A model generated the notes under the pieces. That model had not been told where the DNA came from and made no database searches. It was given only the letters and a program-made list of their open reading frames with translations. Below, in pieces: positions 6,282-62,964 of a stretch of 64,000 nucleotides of DNA (positions are counted from its first letter, which is position 1; each line of letters begins with the position of its first letter). The translations under genes and the position numbers were made by a program. Source of the stretch: Candidatus Cloacimonadales bacterium (GTDB lineage Bacteria > Cloacimonadota > Cloacimonadia > Cloacimonadales > JAFGVF01); contig CAXXOU010000003.1 in assembly GCA_963677495.2 (NCBI GenBank), forward strand, positions 224,001 to 288,000, given 5' to 3'.

Positions 6282-6308
6282 AAGTTATACACATCATGTG
6301 GATAACTT
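6282..6308. promoter_or_regulatory. Opposed DnaA-box pair
   Basis: TTATACACA(6285-6293)-tca-TGTGGATAA(6297-6305); both fit TTATNCACA. Confidence 0.55.
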
Positions 6309-6319
6309 TTAGGGTTCAT

Positions 6320-6440
6320 AGGGAGGGTCTAGGGAGGCTAAAGGGAGGGACAAGCGAGATTCCAGGTTTTTGATGCAGGACATACCAGACTTGTAAAGGA
6401 CTTGTAAAGGAGGAGAAGGAGTATATTGGGAGTAAATTAG
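6320..6440. repeat. 11-bp phased degenerate repeat array
   Basis: AGGGAG at 6320, 6331, 6342, AGCGAG at 6353; GACTTGTAAAG at 6388 and 6399. Confidence 0.75.
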
Positions 6441-6523
6441 GTAACTAAAAGTACAATTTAGTGATTATTTTTCTAAAGAGTGAAACTGAGACTGCCTTAC
6501 TCTAAGTGTTATAAAGTTATTCA

Positions 6524-8629
6524 TTAATCAGTAATAATTGTGACTGGATTAGACAAAGGATGGCTTTTTAAAAGTTCAATACTCCTACTGTCTGGTTGAG
6601 AGCCACCAACAAAGATAAAATATTCTCCTGATACAAGTAGCTCCATACCTTTGTTGTCAAAACTACTTAGTTTTGAAGTAGGAATACGAAAATCCACTAA
6701 AGTAGTCTTGTTGGGGGACACATAGATTTTTTTAAAATCAATTAGTTTGAAATTGGGTGTTATGTATTTTGACTCATTGTTCTTCACATATACTTGAACT
6801 ACTTCTTGTTCCTCATTAAAAGAATCAGAAGAAACTTCTACAGACAACTGAATATTGTCTTTTTCTGTAAGTATAGCATTCTCTATCTTAAGATTTGAAT
6901 ATGTGAAATTGTGATATGAGAGTCCAAAACCAAATGAATAGAGTGGTTTTGACTCTATATACCTATATGTCCTGTTCTTCATAGAATAGTCGTCAAATGG
7001 GGGCAAATCATTCACGGAATTGACAAATGTGACCGGTAGTCTTCCGGAGGGAGAATAATCACCGAACAGAATCTCTGCAATTGCTCTACCACCCTCCGGT
7101 CCGGGATACCAGCATTGCATTATAGCATCGACATTCTCATCTGCCCACTTCACTGCTAGTGCACTACCACTTATAAGGTTTAGAATTACAGGTTTACCAA
7201 CTTTCACTACAGCTTCCAATAGTTGCTGTTGAAGACCAGGTAACTGTAAATCAATCTTATCCCCACCTGCATCTGAATTGTAGGCATCTCCAGCTTCACC
7301 TTCTATTTCGGCATCTAACCCGAGAAACATAACGACAACATCTGATTCTTGTGCAGCTATTATTGCTTCGGAAAAGTAAGTATCTTCTACGTCAAATTCA
7401 GGTTTATTGAAAAGATGGCACCCTTCTGCATAGTGTACATTCGTATTATCACTGACTACATTAATAATCCCCTGCAGTGGTGTTTCCCATCTATCAGGAG
7501 TTCCATGATAGTTTCCTATAAGAGCTTTTCGACTGTCTGCATTTGGTCCTATAACAGCGATTGATTTGATATCCTTTGAAAGAGGGAGCAAACTATCTTT
7601 GTTCTTAAGCAAGACGATTGACTCTCTGGCTGTTTGAATTGATAATTCATGGTGCTTTTCACAACTTACAACATCATATGGGATGTCGTCATACTCTGTG
7701 CTGTTCTTATCTAATATACCTAGTCTGTATCTTGCTTCAAGAAGACGCGCTACAGATTTATCAATGTTTTCCTCTTTTACTAAACCATGATGTACTGCCA
7801 TCAATAGACCTTGGTATGTATTCCCACAGTTCAGGTCACATCCATTGATTACTGCTAATGCTGCAGATTCTTCTTCTGAGTTTGTTATCTTATGAAACTG
7901 ATGGAAGTCACTAATCGCTCCACAGTCAGAAACTACATATCCTTCAAATCCCCAACACTTTCTAAGAATCTCTTCGAGAAGGAAGTTAGAGCCACATGCC
8001 GGCTCTCCATCTACTCTATTATATGCTCCCATCACAGAATAGGCTTTAGCATCTACAATGCACCTTTTAAAAGCCGGTAAATATGTTTCCCAAAGATCTT
8101 TGGGGTTAACATTAACATTGAAAGAGTGTCTATCTGCTTCTGGACCTGAGTGAACAGCAAAATGCTTGGGAGTAGCAATTGTCTTGAGATAATTGGGATT
8201 GTTTCCTTGTAATCCGGTCACGAAAGCATATCCCATTTCTCCGGTCAGATAAGGATCTTCTCCATAGGTCTCATGACCTCTACCCCACCTTGGATCTCTG
8301 AAGATATTGATATTGGGAGACCAAAAGGTTAGTCCTCTGTAAATTCCACTGTCCCCAATCTGTGAAAACTTGTTATATTTAGCCCTAGCTTCATCAGAGA
8401 TAGCTGTAGCAACTTTATACATAAGCTCTGAGTTGAAGGTTGCAGCCATTCCAATAGCTTGTGGGAAAACAGTTGCAGTGCCGGCACGTGCTACACCATG
8501 CAAGCATTCATTCCACCAGTTATATACAGGTATACCCAATCGCTCAATCGCAGGAGCTGCATGCAACATCTGAGAGATCTTTTCTTCAAGAGTCATTTGA
8601 GAGACAAGATTCTTGATTGCTTTATTCAT
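6524..8629 (-). CDS. Glycoside hydrolase family 3 (beta-xylosidase/beta-glucosidase), no signal peptide
   Basis: 'WWNECLHGVAR', 'WGRGHETYGEDP', 'KHF', nucleophile 'VVSDCGA', C-terminal FnIII-like domain. Confidence 0.93.
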   Translation of the reverse strand: MNKAIKNLVSQMTLEEKISQMLHAAPAIERLGIPVYNWWNECLHGVARAGTATVFPQAIGMAATFNSELMYKVATAISDEARAKYNKFSQIGDSGIYRGLTFWSPNINIFRDPRWGRGHETYGEDPYLTGEMGYAFVTGLQGNNPNYLKTIATPKHFAVHSGPEADRHSFNVNVNPKDLWETYLPAFKRCIVDAKAYSVMGAYNRVDGEPACGSNFLLEEILRKCWGFEGYVVSDCGAISDFHQFHKITNSEEESAALAVINGCDLNCGNTYQGLLMAVHHGLVKEENIDKSVARLLEARYRLGILDKNSTEYDDIPYDVVSCEKHHELSIQTARESIVLLKNKDSLLPLSKDIKSIAVIGPNADSRKALIGNYHGTPDRWETPLQGIINVVSDNTNVHYAEGCHLFNKPEFDVEDTYFSEAIIAAQESDVVVMFLGLDAEIEGEAGDAYNSDAGGDKIDLQLPGLQQQLLEAVVKVGKPVILNLISGSALAVKWADENVDAIMQCWYPGPEGGRAIAEILFGDYSPSGRLPVTFVNSVNDLPPFDDYSMKNRTYRYIESKPLYSFGFGLSYHNFTYSNLKIENAILTEKDNIQLSVEVSSDSFNEEQEVVQVYVKNNESKYITPNFKLIDFKKIYVSPNKTTLVDFRIPTSKLSSFDNKGMELLVSGEYFIFVGGSQPDSRSIELLKSHPLSNPVTIITD

Positions 8630-8631
8630 AA

Positions 8632-9246
8632 CTACATACTCATCATCAAGAAGCCTGAGAATCCGGCATTACTATCGGATAAAGATGCATCAACATGAGT
8701 CTTCATCTCATTTATATAGTCACGATAACGAGTGTAGAACTCATAAGTAGGAGTTGGTTTATATTTAATATCCTCTATCTCCATGAGCTTAAGAATACCT
8801 TTCACTGTAGTTGGCTTAATAAAAACGTCATACTGGGGATTGTAATAGGTAGGGATAACAGTTATAAGGGTCCATTTAGCTAGTTTATAATCTTTTAAAA
8901 TATCAACCAGTAGGTTAAATCCAATCTTTTCATTCCCATGTAGAAGCTCTTTCAGAGCAATTGATAACTCCATCTTTTGCCCCGGATCAAACATGTTAAC
9001 AGCATCCCTAAACTTTGGCTTCTCGAAGAGTGATACTAAAGAAGAACGACTCACAATCTTGATCATATTATCCACTATCACTGCCGGATTATCGAACTTA
9101 TCAAGTGCAAAGTTCTCGTGACAGAACTTAACTCTTAAGTCTAGCTTGTGCTTCTTTACTATCTCCACCATCTCAGGATGATTAAATCCACTCGGATACT
9201 TCTCTAAAAACTTCTTCTCCGCTTCTTTTAGTTTTGCAATGTTCAT
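8632..9246 (-). CDS. Hypothetical protein
   Basis: 204-aa ORF with GGAG SD, stop 2 nt before GH3 start; no motif recognised. Confidence 0.7.
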   Translation of the reverse strand: MNIAKLKEAEKKFLEKYPSGFNHPEMVEIVKKHKLDLRVKFCHENFALDKFDNPAVIVDNMIKIVSRSSLVSLFEKPKFRDAVNMFDPGQKMELSIALKELLHGNEKIGFNLLVDILKDYKLAKWTLITVIPTYYNPQYDVFIKPTTVKGILKLMEIEDIKYKPTPTYEFYTRYRDYINEMKTHVDASLSDSNAGFSGFLMMSM

Positions 9247-9257
9247 AGGTTCTCCTA

Positions 9258-10277
9258 TTATCTCGTTTTCTTAACTTGTGATTCTAGTTCCTCTATATCT
9301 TTTAAATCCTCTAAATCAGCTTGTGAAGCTTCGAATGCTCTTCGATTATCATCAAACACTTTGTAGATTTGTCTAACCTTTTCTTCCATCATTTTGTGTG
9401 TTATTGAGCCTTTGCCAACCAAAACTGGTTTTTCATTGAATTCAAGTAGTGAATCAATACTACTCTTCCAAAAGTCCAGTGTAATATCTTTTCTGTTTTT
9501 TACTCTTAACTCTGCTGTTTCCAAAAAGATAACAACTAATCTGTTTAGAGTATCAATTTCGTCTTTATTTAAGAAATTCTTTGCGATTGTAATATCTTGC
9601 TTTCTGACTCTTGTCCCTTTCCAAGAAGTTAATGCCATATTGGGCTTATTAAAATCTGCTCTTGCAACAACCAACTCTGCAGCTGTCTTTTCAGTTACTG
9701 CATATAACAGTTTTTTTTGAGTCTCAGCGAAAAACATTTGACAAGCTTTATCAGAAGTTTCATAGTCACTACTTAAGGCAAACAGATCTCTTACTTTCTG
9801 GTAGAATCTCTTTTCTGAAGCTCTTATCTCTCTTATTCGTTCTAGTAGCTCATCAAAGTAATCAGGACGACCATCAGGATTCTTTAACCTTTCATCATCC
9901 ATAACAAAGCCTTTGATAATGTATTCCCTTAGATTCTGATTAGCCCAGATTCTGAACTGGGTTCCTCTTTTACTTCTCACTCTGAACCCTATAGCTAGAA
10001 CCATCGCTAATGAATAGAAAGTTACATCGTATTTCTTATCATCCAGGGCAGTTGTTAAGTAATTCTTAACAACTGAAGCCCTATCTAATTCCCTATCCTT
10101 CAGTATATTAGATATGTGCATGCTAATATTTGGTATGGAGGTGGCAAAAAGTTCTGCAATCTGGTTTTGGTTCATCCAGACATCACCATCCTTTGCCATT
10201 AGGGCAATCTTAATTTGCCCATCTTGGGACTTGTAGATTATTAAATCTTGGGATTCATCTTTGTTTAATTCTTTCAT
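9258..10277 (-). CDS. RhuM-family (virulence RhuM-like) putative DNA-binding protein
   Basis: 'WMNQNQIAELF', 'GFRVRSKRGTQFRIWA', 'YFDELLERIREIRASEKRFYQKV'; start ATG 10277 after GGAG. Confidence 0.85.
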   Translation of the reverse strand: MKELNKDESQDLIIYKSQDGQIKIALMAKDGDVWMNQNQIAELFATSIPNISMHISNILKDRELDRASVVKNYLTTALDDKKYDVTFYSLAMVLAIGFRVRSKRGTQFRIWANQNLREYIIKGFVMDDERLKNPDGRPDYFDELLERIREIRASEKRFYQKVRDLFALSSDYETSDKACQMFFAETQKKLLYAVTEKTAAELVVARADFNKPNMALTSWKGTRVRKQDITIAKNFLNKDEIDTLNRLVVIFLETAELRVKNRKDITLDFWKSSIDSLLEFNEKPVLVGKGSITHKMMEEKVRQIYKVFDDNRRAFEASQADLEDLKDIEELESQVKKTR

Positions 10278-10356
10278 ACCTACTCCAGTTGGATTCATTA
10301 TATCTGAGAGAAGCTTAGTATTCAAGAAATATCTGTAGGAAAGATTAAGTCAAATG

Positions 10357-10392
10357 AAAAGGACTTATACTCTATCAAAGCATAAGTCCTTT
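10357..10392 (-). terminator. Putative intrinsic terminator after SDR gene
   Basis: AAAGGACTTAT...ATAAGTCCTTT inverted repeat. Confidence 0.55.
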
Positions 10393-10416
10393 AGTATCCA
10401 TCTATATTTTATTGAG

Positions 10417-11199
10417 CTAACTAAGCATCTCCTCAGTTATCTTTATCAGTTGTTCTATCTTTCTATGATTATAGGCATCAGGGTGTGCTTCTCCGAAGCC
10501 ACCTCTATCATTATCGAAGTATTTACCTGTCACACCTTTGAACTTCTCAGATGTACACAACCCTACCAAAAGGTCAGCACCTTTAGTTGCCGGAGACCAG
10601 TATTGTCCATACGCTTCATTAGCCATCTTAGTGTTTAACAAAGAGCCTGGATTAACTGCTATCACACTCACATTCTCAAGTTCTTTTGCTAATCTGAAAC
10701 TCCACATTGTAAGAGCTAACTTACTCTGTGCATATGATTCACTTTGTGAGACTTGCTTCTTACCTTTCAGTAGATCAATTGATACTTCTGATTGTGCTGC
10801 AGAACTAAGGTTAATGATTCTCGCATCACTCTTACTTTTCATTAAAGGTAGTAATGAGTTTGTCAGCAAGTACTGGGCAAAATAGTTGACTACTATTCTG
10901 ATGTCTAGACCTGTTGTATTAGCACTTTTAAAGACTCCGGCATTGTTTAATATAACATCTATGCACTTATAGTCAGCAGTTATTGCTTCTGCCATCTGTT
11001 TCACAGAGTCAAGCTTAGAGAAGTCTGCTACATATCCTTTAACATTAACATTAAGCTTCTTAACCTCATCAACAACTGTGCATAGTTTCTCTGAGTTGCG
11101 CCCATGAAGAATCAGTTTATGTCCTTGCTTTGCAAGCTCCAATGCCGAAAGTTTTCCGATTCCATCTGTAGCTCCGGTTACTAAAATGGTTTTAGACAT
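10417..11199 (-). CDS. Short-chain dehydrogenase/reductase
   Basis: 'TGATDGIG', 'NNAG', 'YAQSK' YxxxK. Confidence 0.92.
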   Translation of the reverse strand: MSKTILVTGATDGIGKLSALELAKQGHKLILHGRNSEKLCTVVDEVKKLNVNVKGYVADFSKLDSVKQMAEAITADYKCIDVILNNAGVFKSANTTGLDIRIVVNYFAQYLLTNSLLPLMKSKSDARIINLSSAAQSEVSIDLLKGKKQVSQSESYAQSKLALTMWSFRLAKELENVSVIAVNPGSLLNTKMANEAYGQYWSPATKGADLLVGLCTSEKFKGVTGKYFDNDRGGFGEAHPDAYNHRKIEQLIKITEEMLS

Positions 11200-11207
11200 T
11201 GTTAAAC

Positions 11208-11876
11208 CTATTTAACCCACTGAACTACTTCTGTTATAGCTCTTCGAGACTTAGGCCAATCCAAATCAGCTTTTTTGTAGCCAAATGCAACCATTGCAGA
11301 AAGTCCGAACACCTTTGAATCTATTAGTCCTTCAGCTTCAAGAATCTCTTCCACTTTCTCTCTACTAAAACCTTCTATCGGACAAGAATCAATACCTATC
11401 TGTGCAGCAGCAGTCATCATATTAGCAAATGATAAATAAGTCTGTTTGCAAGCCCAATCAAATATCTTTCTATCATCAGTAAGATCAAAATCGTTCTTCT
11501 GAAAGTTACCAAATGCACCCAAAATATTCTCTTCAACTTCTACAGAATATTGCTTTACTTCTTTAGAAATATATGAAAAATACTCTGAGCCTGGAACCAA
11601 TTCTGGTGCTTTCCTAGCCATGATTAAGACAAAATGACTTGCAGTTGGGAGTTGTTTCTGAGCTCCCCAGCTATATGGAGCAAGCTTTTCACGTAGTTCT
11701 TTGTTCTGTACAACTATAAATTTCCAAGGTTCCCAGCCAAATGAACTTGGAGATAATCTTCCTGTTTCTAGAATAAACTCAAAATCTTCATCCGGTATCT
11801 TTTTACCAACTTGAAACTCTTTAATTGCCTGTCTAAACTTATAAGCTTCAATTATTTCCTCTTTTCTCTTCTGCAT
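11208..11876 (-). CDS. NAD(P)H nitroreductase (NfsB-like)
   Basis: 'RLSPSSFGWEPWKFIVV', 'GIDSCPIEGF'. Confidence 0.92.
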   Translation of the reverse strand: MQKRKEEIIEAYKFRQAIKEFQVGKKIPDEDFEFILETGRLSPSSFGWEPWKFIVVQNKELREKLAPYSWGAQKQLPTASHFVLIMARKAPELVPGSEYFSYISKEVKQYSVEVEENILGAFGNFQKNDFDLTDDRKIFDWACKQTYLSFANMMTAAAQIGIDSCPIEGFSREKVEEILEAEGLIDSKVFGLSAMVAFGYKKADLDWPKSRRAITEVVQWVK

Positions 11877-12001
11877 AACAATACTCCTTAATTATCTATA
11901 CTTTCTTTCTTTACTATATTTAGTATAGTGTCATTTATGAGTATAGCAGTACTATGTCAATATTATTTTCTGTTTGGGACGTGAAGTATCTGATATCTTT
12001 C

Positions 12002-12784
12002 TTAGAAAGTTAGCAGTATTCCTCGATGATCAGAGGGGTTTAGGGAGTTGTCATAAGTTCTAGTATAACTACATTTTCCACGGATATGCATATTAAAACC
12101 GAAAATAAAATCAATCTCTTTATCCGGGAATGGATTTGGATATGTAGGTTTTGAATCAGAGAGTTTAACAAACCCCTTGGAATGGATTAGTTTTATAACT
12201 TCTGAATTAGGAGTCACATTGAAATCACCACAAAGAATATACTTTTTATAGTTTCTTTTAGTTGCGTAAGACATAATTTCTTTAGCATTTTGCATTGCTT
12301 GCAATGGAGCATAACTTAAGTGTGTGTTCAATATTGTAACATGTCCCGTTTCCACAACCTGTAGGTTACGAACATTAGAATCTTCTATGGGTGGATTGGG
12401 ATTCAAAATCAGATTCACATGTTCTTGAATCGGGTATTTACTAATGACGGTCAAGCCTTCCCAGATAACACTTTTCCCTTCATTCATTATTGCTTTACAT
12501 GGGAAGTTTCTTATTGTTGAAGCTTCATGATTGTAATACATTGCCGGAGCTATTGCTAAATGGTAGCCAATCCCAAATCCTCTTTGATTAAGTTCAAACA
12601 GTATTTGTTCAGCAGTGTTCAAACCAGTAAGTTTTGTTGATGGAGTTTCAAAGCAGAATCGAACTTCTTGAAGGGCTATAACATCAGGATTGAGCCTAAT
12701 AATCTCATCTACAATTAGACCAATCCGTTCCTCCCAGAACGGATGGTCATTGTAATTTGCAATATTCCAAGTTAGAATTTTCAC
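12002..12784 (-). CDS. Endonuclease/exonuclease/phosphatase (EEP) family protein
   Basis: 'LTWNI', 'ALQE', 'NTHL', 'GDFN', 'IDFIF', 'SDH'; GTG start overlaps upstream TAG. Confidence 0.9.
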   Translation of the reverse strand: MKILTWNIANYNDHPFWEERIGLIVDEIIRLNPDVIALQEVRFCFETPSTKLTGLNTAEQILFELNQRGFGIGYHLAIAPAMYYNHEASTIRNFPCKAIMNEGKSVIWEGLTVISKYPIQEHVNLILNPNPPIEDSNVRNLQVVETGHVTILNTHLSYAPLQAMQNAKEIMSYATKRNYKKYILCGDFNVTPNSEVIKLIHSKGFVKLSDSKPTYPNPFPDKEIDFIFGFNMHIRGKCSYTRTYDNSLNPSDHRGILLTF

Positions 12785-15654
12785 TATTGTATAATTAAAT
12801 AAGGACGCTTAACACCTGCTCTAATTTGAGTAGCAGGAGATATGTATCCAGTTTTGCCTATTGAGCTCTTAAACAGTGAGATTAGGTTTTCTCGCATTGT
12901 GAAATCACCGAATCCCTCAGTGATTATGAATCCGAAACCTATCTTCTCATTACCGGTAAGTGCCACTCCAATCTCATATCCGGAATACTTAACCCATTCT
13001 CTGTTATCAATGGAAGGAGCAATTAATCCTAAGACTCCTGCTTCTTTACATCCTTGAAGAACTGCACTGTCTACTGCTTCCGGACAAACAACAATCTTAT
13101 CTCGATTCTCTGCTTTTAAGATGTCTATTTTCTTTTCTACTAATGCAATCTTTCCTGAACGTTCTTCTCCAAATCCGATTACTCCATCAGCTTCGATACC
13201 ATGACATTTAATCTCTGCGAGTCTTATTGCATCTGAATAAATAACTTCACCGTTCACATATGCCAGCATCTCGTATGGTTTCTTATTGTAATGTATTGTT
13301 ATCGTACCTTTCTGAGTATCTATATCAGTTACAAATCCTGTTGCACTTGTTCTAATAAACTGCTGAACCTCCTTAGAGACTCTTTTTGCAATGATCTCAT
13401 GTCCATAGGCAAGATCTCCGACACGTTTTGTCAGATATCCCTTAATCTGATTTGGTTTAATTTTAAGTTTATTGGCAATATTAATTACAATAGGTTTAAC
13501 TGCATGTTTAACTTGCTCACGAATCAGCACTACTCCAGAATTACAGTTAACCTGCTCAATATACCCTGAAGTCGGCGAGTTGTAGTAATAAACAGATTTG
13601 GATATTCCCATTAATGCAGGCTCTGTATGTTGAAAGATTCTCTGGTCAAAGGAAACTTCATCACCTTGCTTAACTAACATTCCGGACTCCATTTTCTCAG
13701 GAGTAAACTCACTACCAAGCACCTTACTAATCGGTGCCATCATAAGCTTTGGAGGTTCTTTACGATTTAACCCAATAATAGTATCAGGTTTAACTACCGT
13801 CCCGGCTTCAACCTCTATTGTTCCATCGTAAGGTAGCTCTTTTCTTATAACAATATCGGTAGATTTTATATCGTTAGTATCCGGATGGGCAAACAAACTT
13901 TTTTGCGGAATGATATCTGTATGGTCACTATAAAGTTTCATTGTCTTATTGATTGACTTAAAGTCAACAAAGCATGAATCCATAGTGTTAATGACAATCG
14001 GTGTATCTGTTTCAAGCTTGATACTAGTTTCGTTTCCACTTAAGAAAACGTTCTTTTCAAGTTCAATCTCTAGCTCTACTTTACTTTCAACCGGGAAGAA
14101 GTAATATTCATTACTCATTATTTCCTGTGTTTTTCCACCTAGTTTAATGGTCATCAATTTGTACGCTTTACGTTTCTTTTTAAATATTGGCTTTAGATAG
14201 ATCCCTAATCTTTCAATTCCTTCTGTATTCAAAAGGGCATCAGCTTCTGTAGGCATAACTTCACTTAACTTACCAAGATGAGGTGATATAAAGTGCTTAT
14301 CACGCCATATTTCGGTAATACCTACAGGTCTGAAACCATGAATAACCATATGAAGAGCTTGCAGTTTACTAGGTGCATGAGAGATAACACCACCGGCACC
14401 GATTATAACATCCAGCTCTGAGAAGTTGAACTTCATGCCATCAACAACTTTCTCAACATATACATGATCCATAAACGGGTCACGTTGAACTGATTTAATA
14501 TTTGTAAATATGTTTCTTTGGTTCTCGCTGAAATGCATCTCCATATGTTGTCTAAAAGCAATATTGATTGCTTCTATCGCACAAGCCTGCTCTACGATAA
14601 GAGATGTCTGATCTTTTGGTACAAACTGTGGATAAAGCATTTTATTGCTAATATAATTACACACATATTCTGCACTAATTGAATCCGGTAACCAACGTTT
14701 TATATTCTCAATCCCTGTATCTGCCAGAACATTTGATATACTATAACTCATACCTGAGTTTGCTCTTACCGTACGATGATTGTTTCCATTAAGGTGAGAG
14801 AATATATCAGTAGTAGCACCACCAATATCAACTGTCATAAGGTTTAGCTTTTTCTCTCCACTAAGAATTTCCATTGATTTCAGCACAGCCTTTGGAGTTG
14901 GAATAATGTCATCATTAACTATCTTCTTCACACCTGAATATCCCGGAGCTTGCTCCATCACATTCTCCATGAATAATTCATGAACTTTATCCTGTGCCGG
15001 AACCAAGTTTTCATCTTCTGGAGTAGGACTGATATTTGGCACAATATGCATATCAAATTTGTCTTTAAAAACTCCGGCAATTGAATCTCTAATGCTCTTG
15101 TTTCCTGCATAAACAAGAGGTATTTTAGCTTTCCCGAATTTGGGTTCCGGATGTGCAACACTTAGAATCTCTGACAAGCGAATAATACCGGTAAATGCAC
15201 CCCCGTCATAGCCACCTGAGAAAAGGATTATATCGGGGTGAACTGCCTGCATAAGCTCCATCTGTTCTAATACAGATCGTTTATCATCTATAGCTATTGT
15301 TTCGAGAATAACTCCACCGGCTCCAAGAGCTGTTTTCTGAGCCCTGGCAGCTGATTCTACCTTGGTCAGCCCCACTACCAATATCTGAAGTCCACCACCG
15401 GCACTACTGGTTGTTAAGTATTTTATATCATCTGTGAACTGTAATGGTTCTTCACTCTGTATTAGCTTTGTATCAAGGTTCTTTTCAAGTTCTTTTACAG
15501 AATTTATTATACCATATTTAACATCTTCAAAAGGTTTCTCAACAGTTGTTGGGGAGTTGGATAATCCTGCAAGTTTTGCAGAGTCATTATCAAGTTCAAT
15601 CAAAATAGCTTTCGTCGTAGTACTTCCAATATCAGTTATAAGTACTCTTTCCAT
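12784..15654 (-). CDS. GlmL/MutL (glutamate mutase L-like, ASKHA ATPase) protein fused to a ~350-aa C-terminal domain
   Basis: 'TDIGSTTTK', 'SSAGGGL', 'ALGAGG', 'VDIGGATTD'; C-terminal part begins near 'RKELPYDGTIEVEAG'. Confidence 0.75.
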   Translation of the reverse strand: MERVLITDIGSTTTKAILIELDNDSAKLAGLSNSPTTVEKPFEDVKYGIINSVKELEKNLDTKLIQSEEPLQFTDDIKYLTTSSAGGGLQILVVGLTKVESAARAQKTALGAGGVILETIAIDDKRSVLEQMELMQAVHPDIILFSGGYDGGAFTGIIRLSEILSVAHPEPKFGKAKIPLVYAGNKSIRDSIAGVFKDKFDMHIVPNISPTPEDENLVPAQDKVHELFMENVMEQAPGYSGVKKIVNDDIIPTPKAVLKSMEILSGEKKLNLMTVDIGGATTDIFSHLNGNNHRTVRANSGMSYSISNVLADTGIENIKRWLPDSISAEYVCNYISNKMLYPQFVPKDQTSLIVEQACAIEAINIAFRQHMEMHFSENQRNIFTNIKSVQRDPFMDHVYVEKVVDGMKFNFSELDVIIGAGGVISHAPSKLQALHMVIHGFRPVGITEIWRDKHFISPHLGKLSEVMPTEADALLNTEGIERLGIYLKPIFKKKRKAYKLMTIKLGGKTQEIMSNEYYFFPVESKVELEIELEKNVFLSGNETSIKLETDTPIVINTMDSCFVDFKSINKTMKLYSDHTDIIPQKSLFAHPDTNDIKSTDIVIRKELPYDGTIEVEAGTVVKPDTIIGLNRKEPPKLMMAPISKVLGSEFTPEKMESGMLVKQGDEVSFDQRIFQHTEPALMGISKSVYYYNSPTSGYIEQVNCNSGVVLIREQVKHAVKPIVINIANKLKIKPNQIKGYLTKRVGDLAYGHEIIAKRVSKEVQQFIRTSATGFVTDIDTQKGTITIHYNKKPYEMLAYVNGEVIYSDAIRLAEIKCHGIEADGVIGFGEERSGKIALVEKKIDILKAENRDKIVVCPEAVDSAVLQGCKEAGVLGLIAPSIDNREWVKYSGYEIGVALTGNEKIGFGFIITEGFGDFTMRENLISLFKSSIGKTGYISPATQIRAGVKRPYLIIQ

Positions 15655-15759
15655 TATTCCTCCTAACTCGTCCCTATTTGTTTTCTGTATCTAAAGTCCT
15701 ACTAATATATGCGTCAAGTAAAAAGGAAGTTACATTAATTCTATATTCAGATCGATTCT

Positions 15760-15793
15760 ACCTTCTGAATGGTCCAGAGACCTTCAGAATGGT
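15760..15793 (+). repeat. REP-like palindrome, left member of an inverted pair
   Basis: ACCTTCTGAATGGTCCAGAGACCTTCAGAATGGT; hairpin; reverse complement of 16075-16108 with 3 mismatches. Confidence 0.75.
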
Positions 15794-15910
15794 ACTCTTG
15801 CAACTGTTCTTCGACGTTGAACGCCAATCTCATGAGAAATATTTAGAATCACTTGAATAATCAACCAATAGAAAGGAGCGCAAAGTCGTTATACATTCTA
15901 TGCTCTCTTT

Positions 15911-15980
15911 CAACACACGGGACACACTCGGGAATCTCTCGGGGCTCTCCCCGTGTAATTCCCATGAGATTCCTGAACAA
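15911..15980. repeat. 11-bp phased dyad array
   Basis: CGGG at 15918, 15929, 15940, then CCCG/CCCA/CCTG at 15950, 15961, 15972. Confidence 0.65.
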
Positions 15981-16017
15981 ATCGCACTTGGCTCCCGAGG
16001 ATTGAAAGGGGACAAAG

Positions 16018-16042
16018 AAAGTGGCATGCATGATGCCACTTT
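16018..16042. terminator. Hairpin, probable terminator of the lgt-lipoprotein operon
   Basis: AAAGTGGCAT-gcatg-ATGCCACTTT. Confidence 0.55.
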
Positions 16043-16074
16043 AAAAAACTTGAAAAAGGGTGTCTATCCGACTC

Positions 16075-16108
16075 ACCATTCTGAAGGTCTTAGGAGCATT
16101 CAGAAGGT
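16075..16108 (-). repeat. REP-like palindrome, right member of inverted pair
   Basis: ACCATTCTGAAGGTCTTAGGAGCATTCAGAAGGT. Confidence 0.75.
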
Positions 16109-16114
16109 GATTTG

Positions 16115-16675
16115 TTATATCCTCTTTATAGATCCAATAACACTCTCAATAATTGTGTTTTTTTCAACATAGAAATCCTTATCGATAAAGATATCAAACA
16201 TAGCGGTTTGCATCTCATTTAAAGGGATTAAGAGCTTGATGCTTACAAAGTTGTTTTCATTCGTAAACTTATATTGATAGAAATAAAGGTCATTGGCTTT
16301 ATACTCAGCAAAAGACATCTCCGGATACTTATCTTTAAGCTCATTCGTGAATCTTTCGTTTGCAACACCGGCATCATCAAGAATAACTGAACCTGCAATG
16401 AAACCTTTCTTCTCTGGAGCTATGAATACATTAAGATTGCGCAATAAGTTAGTATCCGACCTATTCATCTGAAACTTAATAGCTTCCATAATTACATTAT
16501 CTGCAATCTCCCAACCTAATGGAGGTTGATAGCTATAATTGTATGTTGAGTCAACTATAGCTGAAGCTAACAACTTCTGATTAACTCTAAAATCGATTTC
16601 AGGGACTTTAGGAGCTTTGTCACATGCTACCATCAATAGCGTGATTAGCAGTAATAGTATCAGTATCTTTCTCAT
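16115..16675 (-). CDS. Putative lipoprotein
   Basis: Signal peptide with lipobox LMVA|C; directly downstream of lgt. Confidence 0.75.
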   Translation of the reverse strand: MRKILILLLLITLLMVACDKAPKVPEIDFRVNQKLLASAIVDSTYNYSYQPPLGWEIADNVIMEAIKFQMNRSDTNLLRNLNVFIAPEKKGFIAGSVILDDAGVANERFTNELKDKYPEMSFAEYKANDLYFYQYKFTNENNFVSIKLLIPLNEMQTAMFDIFIDKDFYVEKNTIIESVIGSIKRI

Positions 16676-16679
16676 AATT

Positions 16680-24387: not shown

Positions 24388-24394
24388 TTAACTA

Positions 24395-50955: not shown

Positions 50956-53900
50956 CTATTTCATTAGCATCATTTTCTTAGTCTGACTATAGTCACCTGA
51001 TGTCATTTTATAGAAATAAACACCACTTGCTACACTCTGACCTGATTCATCATCACCATTCCATACTACTGAATGTCTGCCTGCGTTAAAGTTAGCTTTA
51101 ACAACGCGAGACACTCTTTGACCAAGAAGGTTATATATATCAATTGTGACGTCAGAATTCTTCTGAAGGTCGAAGCTGATAGAAGTAGTTGGGTTGAATG
51201 GGTTAGGATAGTTACCACGAAGAGTTGTGGTTTCAGGGATTATTACCTGATCATTTGCATCAACTGTAGCACCATTATTAACAACCATAATATCATCAAA
51301 CAGAGCAAAGAAAGTCTGTTGTGATACAGTATGTATAGCAACTCTGATAACCTGTCCTGCATAATCATTTAACTGATAAGAATATTGTGTCCACTCACCA
51401 GGTAACTGGATTGGCTCATCACCGGAAATAACAGTGAAGTCATCCGGATCTGCACTTCCTGCTGAGATAGCCACTTCCACGAGTTCTGAGCCAAACTGTG
51501 TTGTGTAAGAACGAGCCATGAACTGCAAGGTAGCTTCTTCATCGCTTAACTGGATTTGAGGAGTCATTAACCAGTCATCATTAGCGTTTGTATCTGCTGC
51601 AAAACAAGCCGCATATTTACTACCGGTATAAGCATCAGCACCTTGAACAGGAGGAGTAGTTGCTAATGGATTGAAAACGATATAAGCCATAGGATTGTTT
51701 TCATTAGGGAAATCTATTCCATTATTGAAACCGTATGTATCTTCACCATCGTTATCAAGATTAACCATCAATCCCATCTCAGTTGAGAAATCATCATAGC
51801 TTTCAAAACCTTCAGCGATAACAGGAGCATCAACATGTACATGTGTTACTTGAATTGAACTACTTGGTTCAGATTCACCTGTAGGAGCACGATAAAGGGC
51901 AGTAATTTTGTATTGGTAAGTTGTACCCACTACAACATCAGTATCGAGGAAGAACTCACCTGAAACAGCTTCTGTGTTAACAACAACATCATCTCTATAT
52001 ACATTGTATCCAACAATGTCACGTGAATCAGCAGTTGGAGCAAGCCAACTAAGTTCAACACCTTGATAAGTGATGTTATGTGTTAATCCGGTTGGAGGTG
52101 TAAGTCCGGCAGGAGGTACAGGATTATCAGTTGAAAGCCATAAAGCATAATCACCTGTAGTCCAACGCATGTTTCTAGCTTCATCAGCTGCAGGAGAATT
52201 ATCTGCTCTTGCAATTCTTACATAATAGAAACCTGAAGCATCAGCAGGGATATCATATGTGATAGCAGGATTAACACCATCAGTATGCTCATTATCACCG
52301 AATGCAACAGATGTAGCTTCATCTATAGTTACGTTTATATCATCGTATGGTCCGTAAACAAACGCAGCTAAATCAATGTTTGAATCATAGATATTCTCAG
52401 TATGCAACTGGATTTGAGCAGGAGCTTCTTGCCAGAAAACATACCAGTCAATATCAGTTTCAGGTTGGATAATAGCTTCCATTCCTTCGATGTTGCCATC
52501 ATATAGAGCAATCTCAGTTGCATCAGAAGAAGCATCATTATCATCAGCTAAGAAACCATAACCGTGAAGAGGTATTTCATATACATTTCTTTCTTCTACA
52601 GTATAATCATCTTCAATTGTAAGTACAGCGTTTTTGTGACCAATAGTAGTTGGGTTGAACTGAACGCTAATTATAGCTTCACTACCTGATGCAATTGTTA
52701 AAGGATATGTATTATTATCTGTTAAAGCGAACTGATCTGCATTATCACCTGAAACAGCAGGTGCAGATGCAAGAACTATATCGTCAGTAGTGAAGTTACG
52801 TAATCTAACTTCTGTATCAACAGAGTTTTCATCTACAGTAACAATATCAAAATCTATTTCTGATGGTAAGTAGAGACCATCACCTGCATCGGAAAGTTCA
52901 GATGTTGTTGTTGCAAATGCAATAGCCATATCATCTTCTAAAGGACCGCCAACACCATCTTTTCTGTATTGAACACCAACTGTACCGGCTGCGTTTTCAA
53001 TACCGATTACAGCATCACCAAGGATTGATGAAGAACCTGTATCTCCACCAGGATTAGTGTAGTTTCTGTATTGAATTTTAATCTTACCGGTTGGATAAAG
53101 AATGAGCTGTGCATCAATATATTCGTCACTATCACCGAAATCATTCCACATCTCCACTGTATAAACAAAGTTACCCATCTCATCAGCACCATAGTAGCAG
53201 TTTGATGGAACGTTAGTGGTATGCAAATCCATTGCAACCATAGCTATAATATTGTTTGGATTGCCATCATTAGGAATACTCATGCTACCACCTGTGATTG
53301 TTGAAGTAGTTCCAAATGTTGCATATCCGTTTGTTCCTAAATGAATCTGATCATAATCTACACCAAAGTAGTTGAATGTGAAGCCTAAATCAACAGTAGC
53401 AAAACCATCATCTTCACTAGAATAAGTAACTGTTTGGCCTGTAGTTGAAATATCAATCCATTCAAAGATAGGTTGAGAACCAAGTCCATTACCATTATCA
53501 GTACTATTAGCAAAGTAATAGCCACCATAGAGGTTACCGTCACCTCCGAAGTTTGGATCAGACATTACTGTGAATGACCAAACAGGACAATCAGTAGCAT
53601 CACCGGCAAAGTTATATGGAACAACCTGCCAGTAATATGTAGCTTCATAAGTTAAAGCAGTAGTTACGGTATATGATGTCACATCACCTAAGTCATCACC
53701 ATTAATAATATCTGTTGGTGGGTTATCAGAACCAAGATAGAGTTTGTACCCTTCAGGATAGTTTCCACCATCTTCCCAAGAGAGTTCAGGTGTATCTAAA
53801 ACTGAGATTGCTCCATCAGTTGGCTCATCAATATTAGCTGGATTTGGCACTTCATTAAATGTAGTAAATGACCAAACAGGACAGTTCTCAGCACTTCCAT

Positions 53901-56541
53901 TTACATTGTAAGGTACAACTTGCCAGTAATAGTCTACTCCATGCTGAAGGTCGCTATATGCTAATTCAAGAGCGTCAACATCTTCCGCATTGTAAACATC
54001 TGTTGGTGGGTTATCTGTTCCGAGTGAAACATAGTAACCTGATGCACCCATTGCAGTATTCCATTCTAACGTACCATCTGAAAGGATGCCGGTTGCTGTA
54101 TCTACAGGTGCTACTAATGTAGTAGGTGCAGGCACAGTTGAATTATCATAGATGGAAATATCGTCGATACAGATGTCACCATAGAAACTATCAGATTCCA
54201 TCGCACGGAAATCAAACGATACGTTCTGACCAGCAAAATCTGCTAAAGCAACTTCCACATAAGCCCATCCTGTTGCACCATCTGCATCAGTTATAACTAC
54301 CACATCTGTTGTAGTTTCTGTACCAATCAGTGCATCAATATGCAGTTCTGATGTATTATCATTATCACCAATCCAGTAGTTAAACGTAAGAACGGGATTA
54401 GTTAAATCAGTAAGATTGAATACAGGTGTGTAAAGATGTGAAGGAATAGTATCAGGACTTGAGTCATCAACACCCATGTAGTAACCACCATTTCCGGTTG
54501 CTTCGTTATCTGCTCCATGATCATCAAGCTGAGTCTGGTAAAGTTCCCAACTGTCACCACTAACAACCGGATCCACAACCCAACCCATTGGTAAAGCGTC
54601 AGTATCGAAGCTCTGTGTATATGGGAATGAACTGATAGTAGCATTGAAGCCTTCACCTGTAAGGGTGATTTGATGTGTTTGTCTTAAATCATCAGTGACT
54701 GTAATAACACCGGAAATAGCACCTTCTGTTGTTGGGTTGAAAACAACTTCAAGTGACATGTTTTCTGCACTACCAAGAGTGTTAGGATAAGTGTTTGCAT
54801 CGTTTAAAGTAAAATTCACATCATCATCTACAACAACAGATTGGATATTCATAGCACTTCCACCTGTATTCATAAGAGAAATGTTAACAGGTGCTGTTGC
54901 AGTATCCATGAATACTGTTCCAAACTCTATAGATTCAGGATTAATAGTTAACTCAGCTTGAGCTGCAATATCACCGAATGTTAATCTTGTATTTGGCACG
55001 TATGCCTTCAATGTACCTGTTGGAGGTGCATTCGGATCGGGATTGTTTGAATCGTTTCTTGCGACAATACTTCTGTCTCCGGTTACATCAGTTGCATAGA
55101 AATCATCTGAACCTGAAGCATACTCAGGTTGGTTCTCTTCGACAGCAACAACCAAGTTATCAGTGTTATTGTAAACAAACGGAGTAGTAAGCGTGAACTC
55201 TACCCAACCATCAGTTCCGATAGTTGGTAAGGGACCGTTATATACTTCTGTAAATTGATCAATTGGTAACCAAGAAGTAGTTGAACTATATTCTGTCTCA
55301 GAAGTATGAGCCATATAGATAACCCATTCATTATTGTTAACCATTGCTGAGTGTTGATTATAAAGATATGAAATCTTCTCGACTCTACGTCCTGTTACAT
55401 CAATCTCAGATTGAAGATAGATTGTTTGTGAATATGTATAACCAAAGAAAGGATCAATAGGAAGACCTTGATTGAGATAACGGTCGTTACCTATAGCAAC
55501 GCCATCCGCTCCTAAGAAAGTATCAAAGTACATCTCATCTTCTGTATGTCTGATTGATTGTGAATTCTTAGATACAACCTTCCAGTAATATGTCACTCCT
55601 TCAACCATAGAAGTTGGAGTGTAAGAACCTTGTCCTGACACAACACCATCAGTAATAACTTGAGTAACCGGTGGAGTTACAGTATCAAAGAAAAGGTCAT
55701 AGGTTTCAGCATTATCAGCAAAATCCCAAGTTAGTACCTGATCTAAAGCAACGTTATATGCTGCATCTTCAGGAGTTGGGTTCGTAATATGCCCTGTTGA
55801 AAGGTCTTCAGTTGTAAAGCTTAAACTTGACTCAGAACTGTTGGGACTTGTTGAGTTATGGCAAACAACTTTCCAATAATATGTTGTAAACTCAATCAGA
55901 GCAGTATCAGGGGTATAAGAACCGGAAACATCAGCTACACCATCTGTAACAACTTGGTTAACCGGAGGGTTTACTGTATCAAAATAAAGGTCATAAGTCT
56001 CAGTGTTTGCTCCGAAATCCCATGTAAGTGTTGGATTTATGGATACGTCAGATGAACCTGAAGCAGGTACAGCATTTGTAATCATAGTAGGTGCTGATTC
56101 ATCATTAATGCTACCTGTCTGATCAGCAGATACATTCAAAGTATAGGTTGAACCTGTTGTTCCGGTTCCATACTCATCTACACAGATGTAGATAGTAGAG
56201 CCTGCAGCTAAATCCATTATTACCTGAGAATCTCCACCACCGGCAGGACCATCATCGTCAAACTGCAATACGTTAAGATCTGTGTCATAAATGTAAAGAT
56301 AGCCATCCCAACCGTCATATACAGGATGTATATCTAAATTTGTTAAACTAATTGTGGTTGTTAATACCCACCATTCATCTTCTCCTCTCAAGCCATTACC
56401 ATCTGTGTCATCAGATACATCACCTGTATCTGTGAATGGTAAGGTTGCTATTTGAGGAGCTCCGTCCTGGGTATCTGCACCATCTGCAAAAAGACTCATA
56501 GTACATAGTAATACTATAAGAACTAATACCATTTTTCTCAT
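50956..56541 (-). CDS. Large modular surface adhesin-like protein C
   Basis: N-terminus paralogous to A ('HPVYDGWDGYLYIYD'), variant MAM-like domain, nidogen-like domain and CTD shared with B. Confidence 0.85.
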   Translation of the reverse strand: MRKMVLVLIVLLCTMSLFADGADTQDGAPQIATLPFTDTGDVSDDTDGNGLRGEDEWWVLTTTISLTNLDIHPVYDGWDGYLYIYDTDLNVLQFDDDGPAGGGDSQVIMDLAAGSTIYICVDEYGTGTTGSTYTLNVSADQTGSINDESAPTMITNAVPASGSSDVSINPTLTWDFGANTETYDLYFDTVNPPVNQVVTDGVADVSGSYTPDTALIEFTTYYWKVVCHNSTSPNSSESSLSFTTEDLSTGHITNPTPEDAAYNVALDQVLTWDFADNAETYDLFFDTVTPPVTQVITDGVVSGQGSYTPTSMVEGVTYYWKVVSKNSQSIRHTEDEMYFDTFLGADGVAIGNDRYLNQGLPIDPFFGYTYSQTIYLQSEIDVTGRRVEKISYLYNQHSAMVNNNEWVIYMAHTSETEYSSTTSWLPIDQFTEVYNGPLPTIGTDGWVEFTLTTPFVYNNTDNLVVAVEENQPEYASGSDDFYATDVTGDRSIVARNDSNNPDPNAPPTGTLKAYVPNTRLTFGDIAAQAELTINPESIEFGTVFMDTATAPVNISLMNTGGSAMNIQSVVVDDDVNFTLNDANTYPNTLGSAENMSLEVVFNPTTEGAISGVITVTDDLRQTHQITLTGEGFNATISSFPYTQSFDTDALPMGWVVDPVVSGDSWELYQTQLDDHGADNEATGNGGYYMGVDDSSPDTIPSHLYTPVFNLTDLTNPVLTFNYWIGDNDNTSELHIDALIGTETTTDVVVITDADGATGWAYVEVALADFAGQNVSFDFRAMESDSFYGDICIDDISIYDNSTVPAPTTLVAPVDTATGILSDGTLEWNTAMGASGYYVSLGTDNPPTDVYNAEDVDALELAYSDLQHGVDYYWQVVPYNVNGSAENCPVWSFTTFNEVPNPANIDEPTDGAISVLDTPELSWEDGGNYPEGYKLYLGSDNPPTDIINGDDLGDVTSYTVTTALTYEATYYWQVVPYNFAGDATDCPVWSFTVMSDPNFGGDGNLYGGYYFANSTDNGNGLGSQPIFEWIDISTTGQTVTYSSEDDGFATVDLGFTFNYFGVDYDQIHLGTNGYATFGTTSTITGGSMSIPNDGNPNNIIAMVAMDLHTTNVPSNCYYGADEMGNFVYTVEMWNDFGDSDEYIDAQLILYPTGKIKIQYRNYTNPGGDTGSSSILGDAVIGIENAAGTVGVQYRKDGVGGPLEDDMAIAFATTTSELSDAGDGLYLPSEIDFDIVTVDENSVDTEVRLRNFTTDDIVLASAPAVSGDNADQFALTDNNTYPLTIASGSEAIISVQFNPTTIGHKNAVLTIEDDYTVEERNVYEIPLHGYGFLADDNDASSDATEIALYDGNIEGMEAIIQPETDIDWYVFWQEAPAQIQLHTENIYDSNIDLAAFVYGPYDDINVTIDEATSVAFGDNEHTDGVNPAITYDIPADASGFYYVRIARADNSPAADEARNMRWTTGDYALWLSTDNPVPPAGLTPPTGLTHNITYQGVELSWLAPTADSRDIVGYNVYRDDVVVNTEAVSGEFFLDTDVVVGTTYQYKITALYRAPTGESEPSSSIQVTHVHVDAPVIAEGFESYDDFSTEMGLMVNLDNDGEDTYGFNNGIDFPNENNPMAYIVFNPLATTPPVQGADAYTGSKYAACFAADTNANDDWLMTPQIQLSDEEATLQFMARSYTTQFGSELVEVAISAGSADPDDFTVISGDEPIQLPGEWTQYSYQLNDYAGQVIRVAIHTVSQQTFFALFDDIMVVNNGATVDANDQVIIPETTTLRGNYPNPFNPTTSISFDLQKNSDVTIDIYNLLGQRVSRVVKANFNAGRHSVVWNGDDESGQSVASGVYFYKMTSGDYSQTKKMMLMK

Positions 56542-62500: not shown

Positions 62501-62744
62501 GTTCAATCCAACTACAACCATTAAATTTGAACTCAATAAGGGTTCAGTAGTTAGTTTAGATATATATAATATTAAAGGACAGAGAATTAGCTCTTTAACT
62601 CAGAAGTATCATATCCCCGGCACACATAATTACACCTGGAATGGTATTGATAACAGCAATAAAGCTGTTCCAAGCGGTATATACTTCTACAAACTAAAAG
62701 CCGGAACATACACCAAAACAAGAAAGATTGTACTAATCAAATAG
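59568..62744 (+). CDS. Modular surface adhesin-like protein D (short paralogue lacking MAM block)
   Basis: 'NEVEPNN' PPC start like B; ASH, second PPC, FN3, cleaved adhesin, CTD 'RKIVLIK'. Confidence 0.85.
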   Translation: MTMTFLKGFFVFLFICTAFVLCAVNEVEPNNAYNDFGVQTIIDGDHTGTVNPGELDFWKFWSVSGDFVTISCVNNQTNFDSYLYLYDTSGINQLASNDDANGTVQSEIQYQMTTTGYHYFAMAGFGQSSGNYLVSLSGSSPNDPDMPGDLLNPSPYDGALNLDPSNITLSWDFGANTETYDLYIGTVANPNILVLQDEPAGLTASYTPTNLQLDTLYLWRVVAKNSISQYDNEVTWSFRTQTAANIVQVGDDDNMQTTDLPIVSYGYSSFTQTIYTSDELGDPGLVAAIGYQYSGNMGMTNCEDWTIYIGHTTVNGYTSESSWIPVNTLQEVFSGVVSPTTNEGWVTIDLDNAFFYNGVDNLVVSVYEDTPGSGQAQDRFYKSDSNMTKSMVKVSVSEPMLDPFNLGSADYYQTFFPNTRFTINRDIAGAYVLAFPFEHDWGLVDVGTTTQAETVTITNYGETTATINNPPTLLGDFVDQFTLTDSNVYPIALETLDSITLDVCFNPTSGGYKSTELSLSHDWQGSTEIIVPFQGRGLVYDSNNTPSNATELQLVVEDMLCAIEPAGDIDFYSFFQTAPAEISIFTEANDFSGINPEMYLYGPFNSIPNSVTAEDCIMACDDFNGSLHPRIDMNINDSGFYIVRIASYDNFPDSRTSHIGEYLLTVLSDNIQPPGYLEPPTNITAMNQTDCIQLNWELPLNGNPSGYYVFRDGVRLNNDLITTLSYSDYNVNNNVEYEYYLTAFYNSYYAESIPSDTLAVTFIPGGAGYLSDNFEGYENFLLQFGNWITVDGDGENTLGFTNGVDFASEEQPMAFTVFNQLATTPPISFAPAYSGDKALASFAPQNGARNDWLISEEIALSDTSAFVSFYGRTVFPQYGAEQFKAYVITDYTNPDNPIMDCISGNTSIELPADWCYYGFDLDEYLGQNIRIALLLNTESGFMAMLDDFRVTVEGVATETVEAVQSTSIVKNLSSYPNPFNPTTTIKFELNKGSVVSLDIYNIKGQRISSLTQKYHIPGTHNYTWNGIDNSNKAVPSGIYFYKLKAGTYTKTRKIVLIK

Positions 62745-62772
62745 ATTTCCGCCTTCCTTATATGTCACACTT

Positions 62773-62801
62773 AACCCGGAGCTGAATGGCTCCGGGTTTT
62801 G
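62773..62801 (+). terminator. Intrinsic terminator
   Basis: AACCCGGAGC-tgaatg-GCTCCGGGTT-TT. Confidence 0.85.
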
Positions 62802-62837
62802 TAGTTATTTACTAATTCACCACTCTCTTAGTGCTCC

Positions 62838-62964
62838 CGAATAATTCCTGGTAGACACTTGGCAAACCCTTGGTAAACACTTGGCCTATCCTTGGCCTAA
62901 TTACCAAGAATGTTACAGGTTAATGCCAGGGTTTTGCTAGCTTGAGATCAATTATTACTGCTGA
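62838..62964 (-). repeat. Family-1 phased element, 5-unit copy
   Basis: Minus strand TCAGCAGTAATAATT...CTTGGTAATTAGGCCAAGGATAGGCCAAGTGTTTACCAAGGGTTTGCCAAGTGTCTACCAGGAATTATTCG. Confidence 0.85.

Follow-up and report, generated by a model that had tools for sequence, protein, structure and literature searches.

The stretch of DNA analysed here, called the window throughout, is a 64,000-nucleotide segment (G000:C3:224001-288000) of the genome of Candidatus Cloacimonadales bacterium (G000; 3.41 Mb, four contigs, 37% G+C). Its proteins bear type IX secretion sorting domains, and eight places between its genes hold arrays in which a short core recurs at exactly 11 bp. A first-pass annotation, made from the letters alone, had described these arrays with their cores and exact spacing, and the sequences read as claimed at all eight places; six of them (15918, 22294, 22444, 36112, 45015 and 62838) also flip to the reverse-complement core at a dyad, as it had stated. 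We found that the arrays belong to six families of dispersed repeats. They are almost certainly the internal architecture of small non-coding elements, about 90-180 bp long, of the MITE (miniature inverted-repeat transposable element) or REP (repetitive extragenic palindromic) kind, and the genome almost certainly contains at least 12 such array families, common to one Cloacimonadota genus. Tandem repeats were called with Tandem Repeats Finder (TRF) in the window and in the genome, and folding was computed for single-stranded DNA, with z-scores against 200 shuffles. The elements in the window are listed below.

6250-6400, + strand: family A element of about 150 bp (array at 6320; 36 genome hits, which cover 6290-6380; 35-copy alignment and consensus), in which a palindrome resembling a DnaA box (6284-6306) is followed by a direct array of AGGGAGG (about 6311-6354). 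Its termini are imperfectly matched inverted repeats, the left one diverged in this copy; the array (6312-6372) shows no fold (z +1.45).

6388-6438, + strand: two period-11 tandem duplications from TRF, GACTTGTAAAG x2.2 and GGAGTAAATTG x1.9, just beyond the right end of the family A copy.

15900-16010, + strand: family B foldback (array at 15918; 26 genome hits, 25-26 over 15920-15950; 11-copy consensus), with direct CTCGGGA-type units followed by inverted TCCCGAG-type units, the right arm degraded here; DNA fold z -3.36.

22283-22378, + strand: family C foldback (array at 22294; 6 genome hits), with TCCCTTG units followed by CAAGGGA units; fold -23.7 kcal/mol, z -4.22.

22436-22596, + strand: family D, copy 1 (array at 22444; up to 40 genome hits; 23-copy consensus), with inverted termini GCAGTAATT...AATTACTGC and arms in which CTTGG / CCAAG units recur every 11 bp; its termini are paired when folded (z -4.48).

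36104-36250, + strand: family D, copy 2 (array at 36112; 36 genome hits); fold z -3.65, ends paired.

44845-44979, + strand: family G1 element of about 130 bp (array at 44916; 13 genome hits), with terminal inverted repeats CCCCCAyTCAAT...ATTkAATGGGGG, a box palindrome at 44882-44904, and an array at 44905-44966 of one inverted core, CTTGAT, then five direct ATCAAG units; no significant fold (44905-44968, z -0.62).

45012-45103, + strand: family H foldback of about 90 bp (array at 45015; 45 genome hits; 40-copy alignment with unrelated flanks), made of four ACCACGG units, a 3-nt centre, four CCGTGGT units and little else; fold z -5.81.

62828-62975, + strand: family D, copy 3 (array at 62838; 40 genome hits), in opposite orientation with a degraded right arm; z -2.05.

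The period was quantified in crude intergenic DNA, taken as everything outside open reading frames (ORFs) of at least 100 amino acids (426 kb genome-wide). In the window, 14 of the 32 TRF rows had period 11 and one had period 22, and the rows on the arrays include those at 6318, 15913, 22293, 22521, 36146/36171, 44916, 45015/45059 and 62849. Results showed that identical 5-mers in its crude intergenic DNA (6,565 bases) numbered 122 at distance 11, compared with 7-16 at distances 7-14, and that six of the nine intergenic gaps of at least 400 bp held an array (ORF map plus TRF rows). Genome-wide, period 11 was found in 554 of 2,012 TRF rows and period 22 in 78; the next commonest periods were 9 (322 rows) and 12 (195 rows). 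The genome-wide comparison with shuffled intergenic DNA, which the first-pass annotation had proposed as a check, gave a 5-mer identity at distance 11 of 8.33 times that of one mononucleotide shuffle, with harmonics at distances 22 (4.64-fold) and 33 (2.48-fold). The neighbouring distances 10 and 12 reached 1.59-fold and 1.37-fold, so the signal is sharp at exactly 11, unlike the broad 10-11 bp periodicity related to supercoiling. Coding DNA of the genome showed period 3 alone in the same measure. Exact spacing at 11 bp with 3-5 units per arm also gives the integral-turn layout of iteron and operator arrays.

This signal is carried by dispersed repeats. Every window array matches 6 to 45 places in the genome, and copy alignments have sharp borders and unrelated flanks. 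Among fully intergenic period-11 TRF rows, 399 of 441 lay in sequence with at least three copies elsewhere, and the unique period-11 rows (28) did not exceed the background of period 10 (31) or period 9 (28). After removal of local self-matches, we divided the intergenic DNA into a dispersed part (191 kb) and a unique part (228 kb); about one third of the genome's intergenic DNA is repeated. Unique DNA had 2.69 matches per 1000 at distance 11 and equally many at distance 10, whereas dispersed DNA had 21.4 per 1000 at distance 11 versus 2.1 at distance 10. Since unique DNA shows no excess, the whole of the 11-bp excess sits in the dispersed families, and 11-bp duplications are not favoured in general. 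Merging gave 406 period-11/22 loci, which fell into 12 clusters of at least five loci (67, 41, 39, 29, 24, 22, 18, 8, 7, 6, 6 and 5; 272 loci in total) and 125 singletons, and the large clusters have cores that bear no relation to one another (CACTG, CCACGG, CCAAG, AGGGAGG, CACGAGAGGG, TAACGGG and CTCGGGA).

These results also change the meaning of the original description. Its statement that the core differs between arrays holds across families, but the three at 22444, 36112 and 62838 all represent one family, D (36-40 genome hits), and since every array is a copy of a dispersed family, the statement amounts to saying that the repeat families differ. Its proposal of dedicated host sites marking most long intergenic gaps has to be given up, because the arrays are members of 12 or more dispersed families and the 11-bp excess is missing from unique intergenic DNA. 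Size (about 90-180 bp), lack of coding capacity and copy number (6 to 45 per window family) are those of MITEs. Terminal inverted repeats were seen in D (from the fold), in G1 and its sister subfamily G2 (from paired loci, the termini CCCCCATTCAAT...ATTGAATGGGGG lying about 128 bp apart at seven loci), and in a further subfamily, G3, and A (from alignments by eye), while the arms of H and B reach the element ends.

Two architectures were recognised. In the foldbacks (H, B, C, D and the CACTG family), n direct units are followed by a short centre and n inverted units, and family D additionally has terminal inverted repeats. In families A, G1, G2 and G3, the last three of which were aligned as sisters, a direct array is joined to a palindromic pair of DnaA-box-like 9-mers, GTTATCCACA-N3-TGTGGATAAC, which makes a 10-bp stem with a 3-nt loop. 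By our own count, the first full array unit stands 20-22 bases past TGTG in all four box families. The consensus 9-mer, TTATNCACA, forms 58 palindromic pairs in the genome, all of them intergenic, and a looser pattern with one mismatch gave 66 forward matches. Judged from the sequence, the box appears to be the organism's own DnaA word. In a genome of a sister genus (G011), a similar box pair stands about 28 bp upstream of dnaA (Pfam DnaA_N, Bac_DnaA and Bac_DnaA_C), and in the present genome five perfect DnaA boxes fall within about 220 bp of one intergenic gap, C1:766,199-766,420. That cluster lies about 100 kb from dnaA (C1:868,295-869,623) and is a candidate replication origin or DnaA-titrating site. 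The box pair also occurs in 73 viral contigs, amid other DnaA boxes, and in these contigs a period-11 array of the genome's type was not present. We considered whether the arrays themselves are degenerate DnaA boxes phased with the strong box, and rejected this: the best agreement, 6-8 of 9 positions, is what chance would give by our estimate, and the registers differ (3 and 5 modulo 11, own count).

The hairpin alternative was weighed on the folding of the arrays and on the way their units vary. The six dyad arrays fold with z-scores of -2.05 to -5.81; for five of them none of 200 shuffles folded as well, and for the copy at 62838 five of 200 did. In a crude test, 291 of the 406 period-11/22 loci were direct-only, a class that undercounts dyads because TRF often reports one arm only, and 61 of these adjoin a box palindrome. 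The consensus of family H folds at -37.8 kcal/mol, and across its 40 copies the hairpin is 82.7% paired by descent; of 1,303 cells, 225 were broken, 36 one-sided and 14 doubly changed. Transcribed long hairpins, which the first-pass annotation had offered as one possibility, are thus disfavoured, because direct-only arrays keep the period without a fold and broken cells in family H far outnumber the doubly changed ones.

Core words were found to switch together across units. G1 and G2 (five copies each) have the termini, the box palindrome and the frame in common, but their core words differ: the five direct units read ATCAAG in G1 and AGTAAG in G2, and the inverted unit reads CTTGAT in G1 and CTTACT or close variants in G2, while the first two spacers are common to G1 and two of the five G2 copies. 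The core of family A is TAGGGAGG in this genome; in its congener G001 both leading units have CAAGGAGG, and the third unit there is the inverse, CCTTGG. Among copies of the older families (H, D and B), spacers are less well conserved than cores. Slippage would have homogenised the spacers too, and the fact that the cores alone were switched counts against it.

Distance-11 rates relative to neighbouring distances were compared among relatives in samples of 60-208 kb each. The ratio was 10.5 in the window, and 5.1, 2.8 and 2.0 in the congeners G003, G002 and G001, where repeats of G002 and G003 are probably undercounted because their assemblies are fragmented; in three genomes of two sister genera it was 1.5, 0.9 and 0.8. 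A survey of relatives, again suggested at the outset, therefore places the signal in one genus only: the three congeners have it in weaker form, and the sampled sister genera show little or none of it. G001 contains families A, B, D and G2 with the same ends and cores, family B there having 4-7 units, and G002 and G003 also contain period-11 units with other cores. These observations indicate that the geometry persists within the genus while the words change, and they bear out the earlier view that geometry rather than sequence is conserved, the period being common to families with unrelated cores. The box module gave 66, 12, 44 and 11 forward matches in the genus's four genomes, and no more than one in any of 37 further genomes from the order. 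With respect to genes, for which crude gene calls were used, no bias was seen for family A (35 copies) or family H (40 copies); 12 of 25 family D copies lie between divergent genes and two between convergent genes, and 50 of 65 CACTG copies have a downstream gene that runs in the same direction.

The same period in direct-only arrays, the few compensatory changes, the concerted core switches and the better conservation of cores in the older families together favour phased, same-face protein-binding arrays within MITE/REP-like selfish elements, an explanation to which we give a probability of about one half. A core of 5-8 bp that repeats once per helical turn would place all cores on one face of double-stranded DNA. 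Each core would then act as the specificity word for a sequence-specific DNA-binding protein, with the spacers less important; the foldback families would present two opposed arrays, and the direct array plus DnaA-box pair of the other four families would resemble the layout of an iteron-type origin or operator. The reader would most likely be a protein that moves or maintains the element. Protein binding had been part of the first-pass annotation as well, and of that proposal the same-face protein reading fits best with the sharp period, the unrelated cores and the congeners, while the idea of dedicated host sites falls away.

Several points weigh against this explanation. No binding protein was identified, no conserved gene was found beside the arrays, and a gene-bearing parent of any family was not found in this genome. 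At least 12 core types would need many readers or one adaptable reader, and neither was found. Six of the eight window arrays can form hairpins, which is compatible with a single-strand step, and the shared period could be explained in part by descent, as four families share the box module and several have CTTGG-like cores. Mobility would have to be read from dispersal and sharp borders alone: the flanks of G1/G2 and D copies show no clear target-site duplication by eye, the orthologous gaps of G001-G003 were unalignable, and neither a target-site duplication nor an empty site was established, because the congeners are only 65-78% identical in their genes. The coding mask (ORFs of at least 100 amino acids) is crude, and the shuffle control consisted of one mononucleotide shuffle only.

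The foldbacks might instead be REP- or REPIN-like (REP doublet forming hairpin) substrates of Y1 transposases, of the REP-associated tyrosine transposase (RAYT) or IS200 type, moved as single-stranded DNA, in which case the 11-nt period would be a pattern of stems and internal loops for the enzyme to recognise. The genome has 14 Pfam Y1_Tnp matches, 13 above the cut-off, which are enough paralogs for many repeat families, and the folding of six of the eight window arrays, the stable consensus of family H and the stem-loop of the box palindrome itself agree with such a route. However, it is REP-type clusters of long period (48-347 bp), and not period-11 arrays, that flank eight of the 14 Y1 genes within 58-272 bp; period-11 arrays occur near Y1 genes at the genome-wide background density. 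Direct-only families have the same period with no fold, family H has 14 compensated against 225 broken cells, neither a GTAG nor a CGTC tag was seen by eye at the consensus ends, and D, G1/G2, G3 and A possess the terminal inverted repeats that Y1-moved elements are without; we consider this route unlikely. It also seems quite improbable that the period is functionless, a trace of minisatellites grown by slippage in decaying selfish repeats, with 11 bp inherited from one or few ancestors. The number of units does vary by whole units (11-bp gaps in at least 4 of 40 H copies; 4-7 units in family B of G001), all of the signal lies in repeat families, and the module common to four families shows that these are related. 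Yet the cores are unrelated across families (CACTG, CCACGG, CCAAG, CTCGGGA, AGGGAGG, TAACGGG, CCTATA), slippage does not account for switches confined to the cores, congeners retain the period with partly new cores, and no other period is comparably enriched among dispersed arrays, apart from period 7 (about 2.4-fold), the only other one enriched in dispersed DNA.

A host-serving role in DNA topology, with the arrays as wrapping or loading sites for gyrase or a nucleoid protein that selfish elements spread in the manner of the E. coli BIME-2 (bacterial interspersed mosaic element) gyrase sites, is very unlikely in our estimate. Enterobacterial REP/BIME elements are reported to bind gyrase and IHF, and from DNA geometry the element size (about 90-160 bp), the dyad symmetry and a period just above the 10.5-bp twist would suit wrapping around a protein. 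Most copies of families D, G3 and B lie in promoter-bearing gaps, 12 of 25 D copies being between divergent genes. A reading from shape alone, however, leaves the exact cores and the concerted, frame-kept core switches unexplained; copies of A and H are placed and oriented without preference with respect to genes, and individual copies decay. The signal is absent from the sister genera sampled (ratio 0.76-1.47 in three genomes), which makes a housekeeping function unlikely. As a long shot, the elements might be genus-specific iteron MITEs, whose spread and upkeep would go through an origin-like combination of the DnaA-box pair and phased iterons with fast-switching words, and whose hundreds of scattered copies would titrate DnaA and/or those plasmid and phage initiators that read the same words. 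If so, they could buffer the timing of replication, or act on the chromosome as incompatibility decoys for replicons that invade.

Arrays of period 11 were also met outside the genus. In viral contig L134, an 11-bp ACCACGG array lies within a replication-initiator gene (phrog_270). Two unrelated phage contigs, L140 and L141, carry 4 and 10 units of the 11-mer ACCACGGG upstream of a Pfam GP88 (phrog_1392) gene, possibly an array-and-reader pair. GP88/phrog_1392 was rejected as the reader in the present case, as the family has no match in this genome. A pattern of three ACCACGG units was found at more than 114 loci, in many phyla, in 596 Gb of genome contigs, a recurrence compatible with chance given so many tandem repeats in that amount of sequence. 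Among these loci (L206-L285), two Vicinamibacterales metagenome-assembled genomes (MAGs) and one Acidobacteria MAG each have several loci with dispersed ACCACGG arrays at 11 bp; a dyad form occurs in a Dadabacteria MAG, and Hymenobacter and Pseudoflavitalea have long arrays. Dispersed arrays of period 11 may represent a broader class, or chance may account for the common core.

Other mobile DNA was considered for its relation to the elements. No G1/G2 termini lay 150-6000 bp apart in the genome, so these ends pointed to no parent insertion sequence (IS), and no split array enclosing a gene was found in the genome except at one locus interrupted by an IS21-type element. The ends of the IS3-type and IS21-type elements differ from those of the array families. 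The IS3-type element, with Pfam domains HTH_Tnp_1 plus rve, is present in six copies of 99.8-100% identity (G000 C2:359326-360836 and five further loci). In all six cases it lies immediately beyond one and the same end of a family D copy and keeps its orientation to it, although those six D copies are only 52-86% alike; this suggests targeted insertion next to family D. It was rejected as the parent of family D, since the ends agree over the outer 6-7 bases only. Insertion sequences that target REP elements are known, according to the accessible text of one report (PMC1525189). The IS21-type element (about 2.37 kb; G000 C1:126464-128830 and about 16 others, thus about 17 copies) carries an IstB domain; in the copy examined, the IstA frame is in three pieces and IstB is intact. 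Several of its copies stand beside CACTG elements, and one splits a CACTG array.

Further features were noted around the elements. The duplications at 6388-6438 are variable tails outside the family A consensus, and other A copies bear different short repeats on the same side; genome-wide, many A and D copies have short variable tandem repeats at one end, including the heptamers AAATGCA/GCATTCA and 11-mers. A hairpin repeat with ACCTTCnGAATGGT-type words has one copy on either side of the family B element (window 15757-15800 and 16074-16112), and such words also form long-period tandem clusters by Y1 (RAYT) genes, for example at C2:153,404-154,480. Four sequencing runs, all from one sample and study and in contig form, contain the stretch, and none is listed as RNA; their contigs over window 6000-23000 end within family A and D copies, and the joints are repeat cross-matches. 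The window contains four very large ORFs of 1,768-2,188 amino acids (26446-33012, 39010-44487, 45478-50784 and 50956-56541), whose neighbours carry type IX sorting tails, and a CRISPR-like array with a 36-bp repeat and unique spacers of about 30 bp lies elsewhere in the genome (G000 C4:295,810-296,902). An Rfam scan of the window found no family at the gathering score. Cyanobacterial repeats were rejected as the identity of the arrays, as HIP1 occurs only twice and the window proteins have type IX secretion sorting domains. A limited literature search found no description of such 11-bp-array elements.

The most abundant repeat families of this genome thus obey one exact geometric rule. Our analysis adds that the signal lies wholly in dispersed families, and it adds the DnaA-box module, the concerted core switches, the separation from RAYT-linked repeats, the IS3-type targeting and the genus-wide spread. 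If the cores are docking words for proteins, the elements would form a natural library of phased binding arrays from which specificity switches can be read in the sequence, and the lack of a culture would not prevent a test of this on cloned DNA with candidate proteins. The box pairs raise the question of whether DnaA is recruited to about 60 extra sites. For annotators there is a warning as well: a strong 11-bp periodicity can stem wholly from a few repeat families and not from chromosome-wide supercoiling.

The arrays resemble several known systems in part. Strong gyrase sites, as in the E. coli gyrase motif, are about 130 bp long, symmetric and helically periodic; that motif is a weak composition pattern, whereas these arrays consist of exact repeated words. 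With the REP/BIME/REPIN elements and RAYTs of E. coli and Pseudomonas, as far as the available portions of the reports describe them (PMC3333891, PMC3337134, PMC3733652), they have in common that they are high-copy, intergenic, palindromic, non-coding mosaic repeats, and judging by the portion of PMC1525189 at hand, both are targets of insertion sequences. The same genome, moreover, carries many Y1 genes with REP clusters of their own. The repeats flanking Y1 genes, however, do not belong to the period-11 families, whose units are words of 11 bp and not palindromes of 20-40 bp; the period-11 families show no GTAG/CGTC tag by eye, several have terminal inverted repeats, and some are palindromic only in the box pair. 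The inverted ends of Drosophila Foldback elements are made of short tandem units, and the foldback arms described here are likewise built of repeats. MITEs, including one of P. gingivalis with a minisatellite (PMC4596501, from its accessible part), are similar in small size, terminal inverted repeats, intergenic dispersal and internal tandem units. The present elements differ in that this genome yielded no parent insertion sequence sharing their ends, that many families follow one exact period and that four carry DnaA-box pairs.

Iteron plasmid origins combine DnaA boxes, direct iterons and an inverted copy. In the passages available, the R1 centromere parC is reported to have two sets of five 11-bp iterons, with one ParR dimer per iteron (PMC2241845), and SARP (Streptomyces antibiotic regulatory protein) regulators to bind a heptamer plus 4-nt spacer, an 11-bp same-face layout (PMC5930380). 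Known arrays of this kind are single-copy and lie beside the gene of their binder, whereas the present ones occur in tens of dispersed copies with no cognate gene nearby. The likeness to these and to OmpR/PhoB-type operators, so far as those partial texts go, lies in the 3-5 or more direct repeats at 11 bp, with a core of about 7 bp and a spacer of about 4 bp. It extends to the two sets of units around a centre, to the inverted core beside the direct units of G1/G2 and to the DnaA boxes that adjoin the array, and the changes of core look like switches of specificity.

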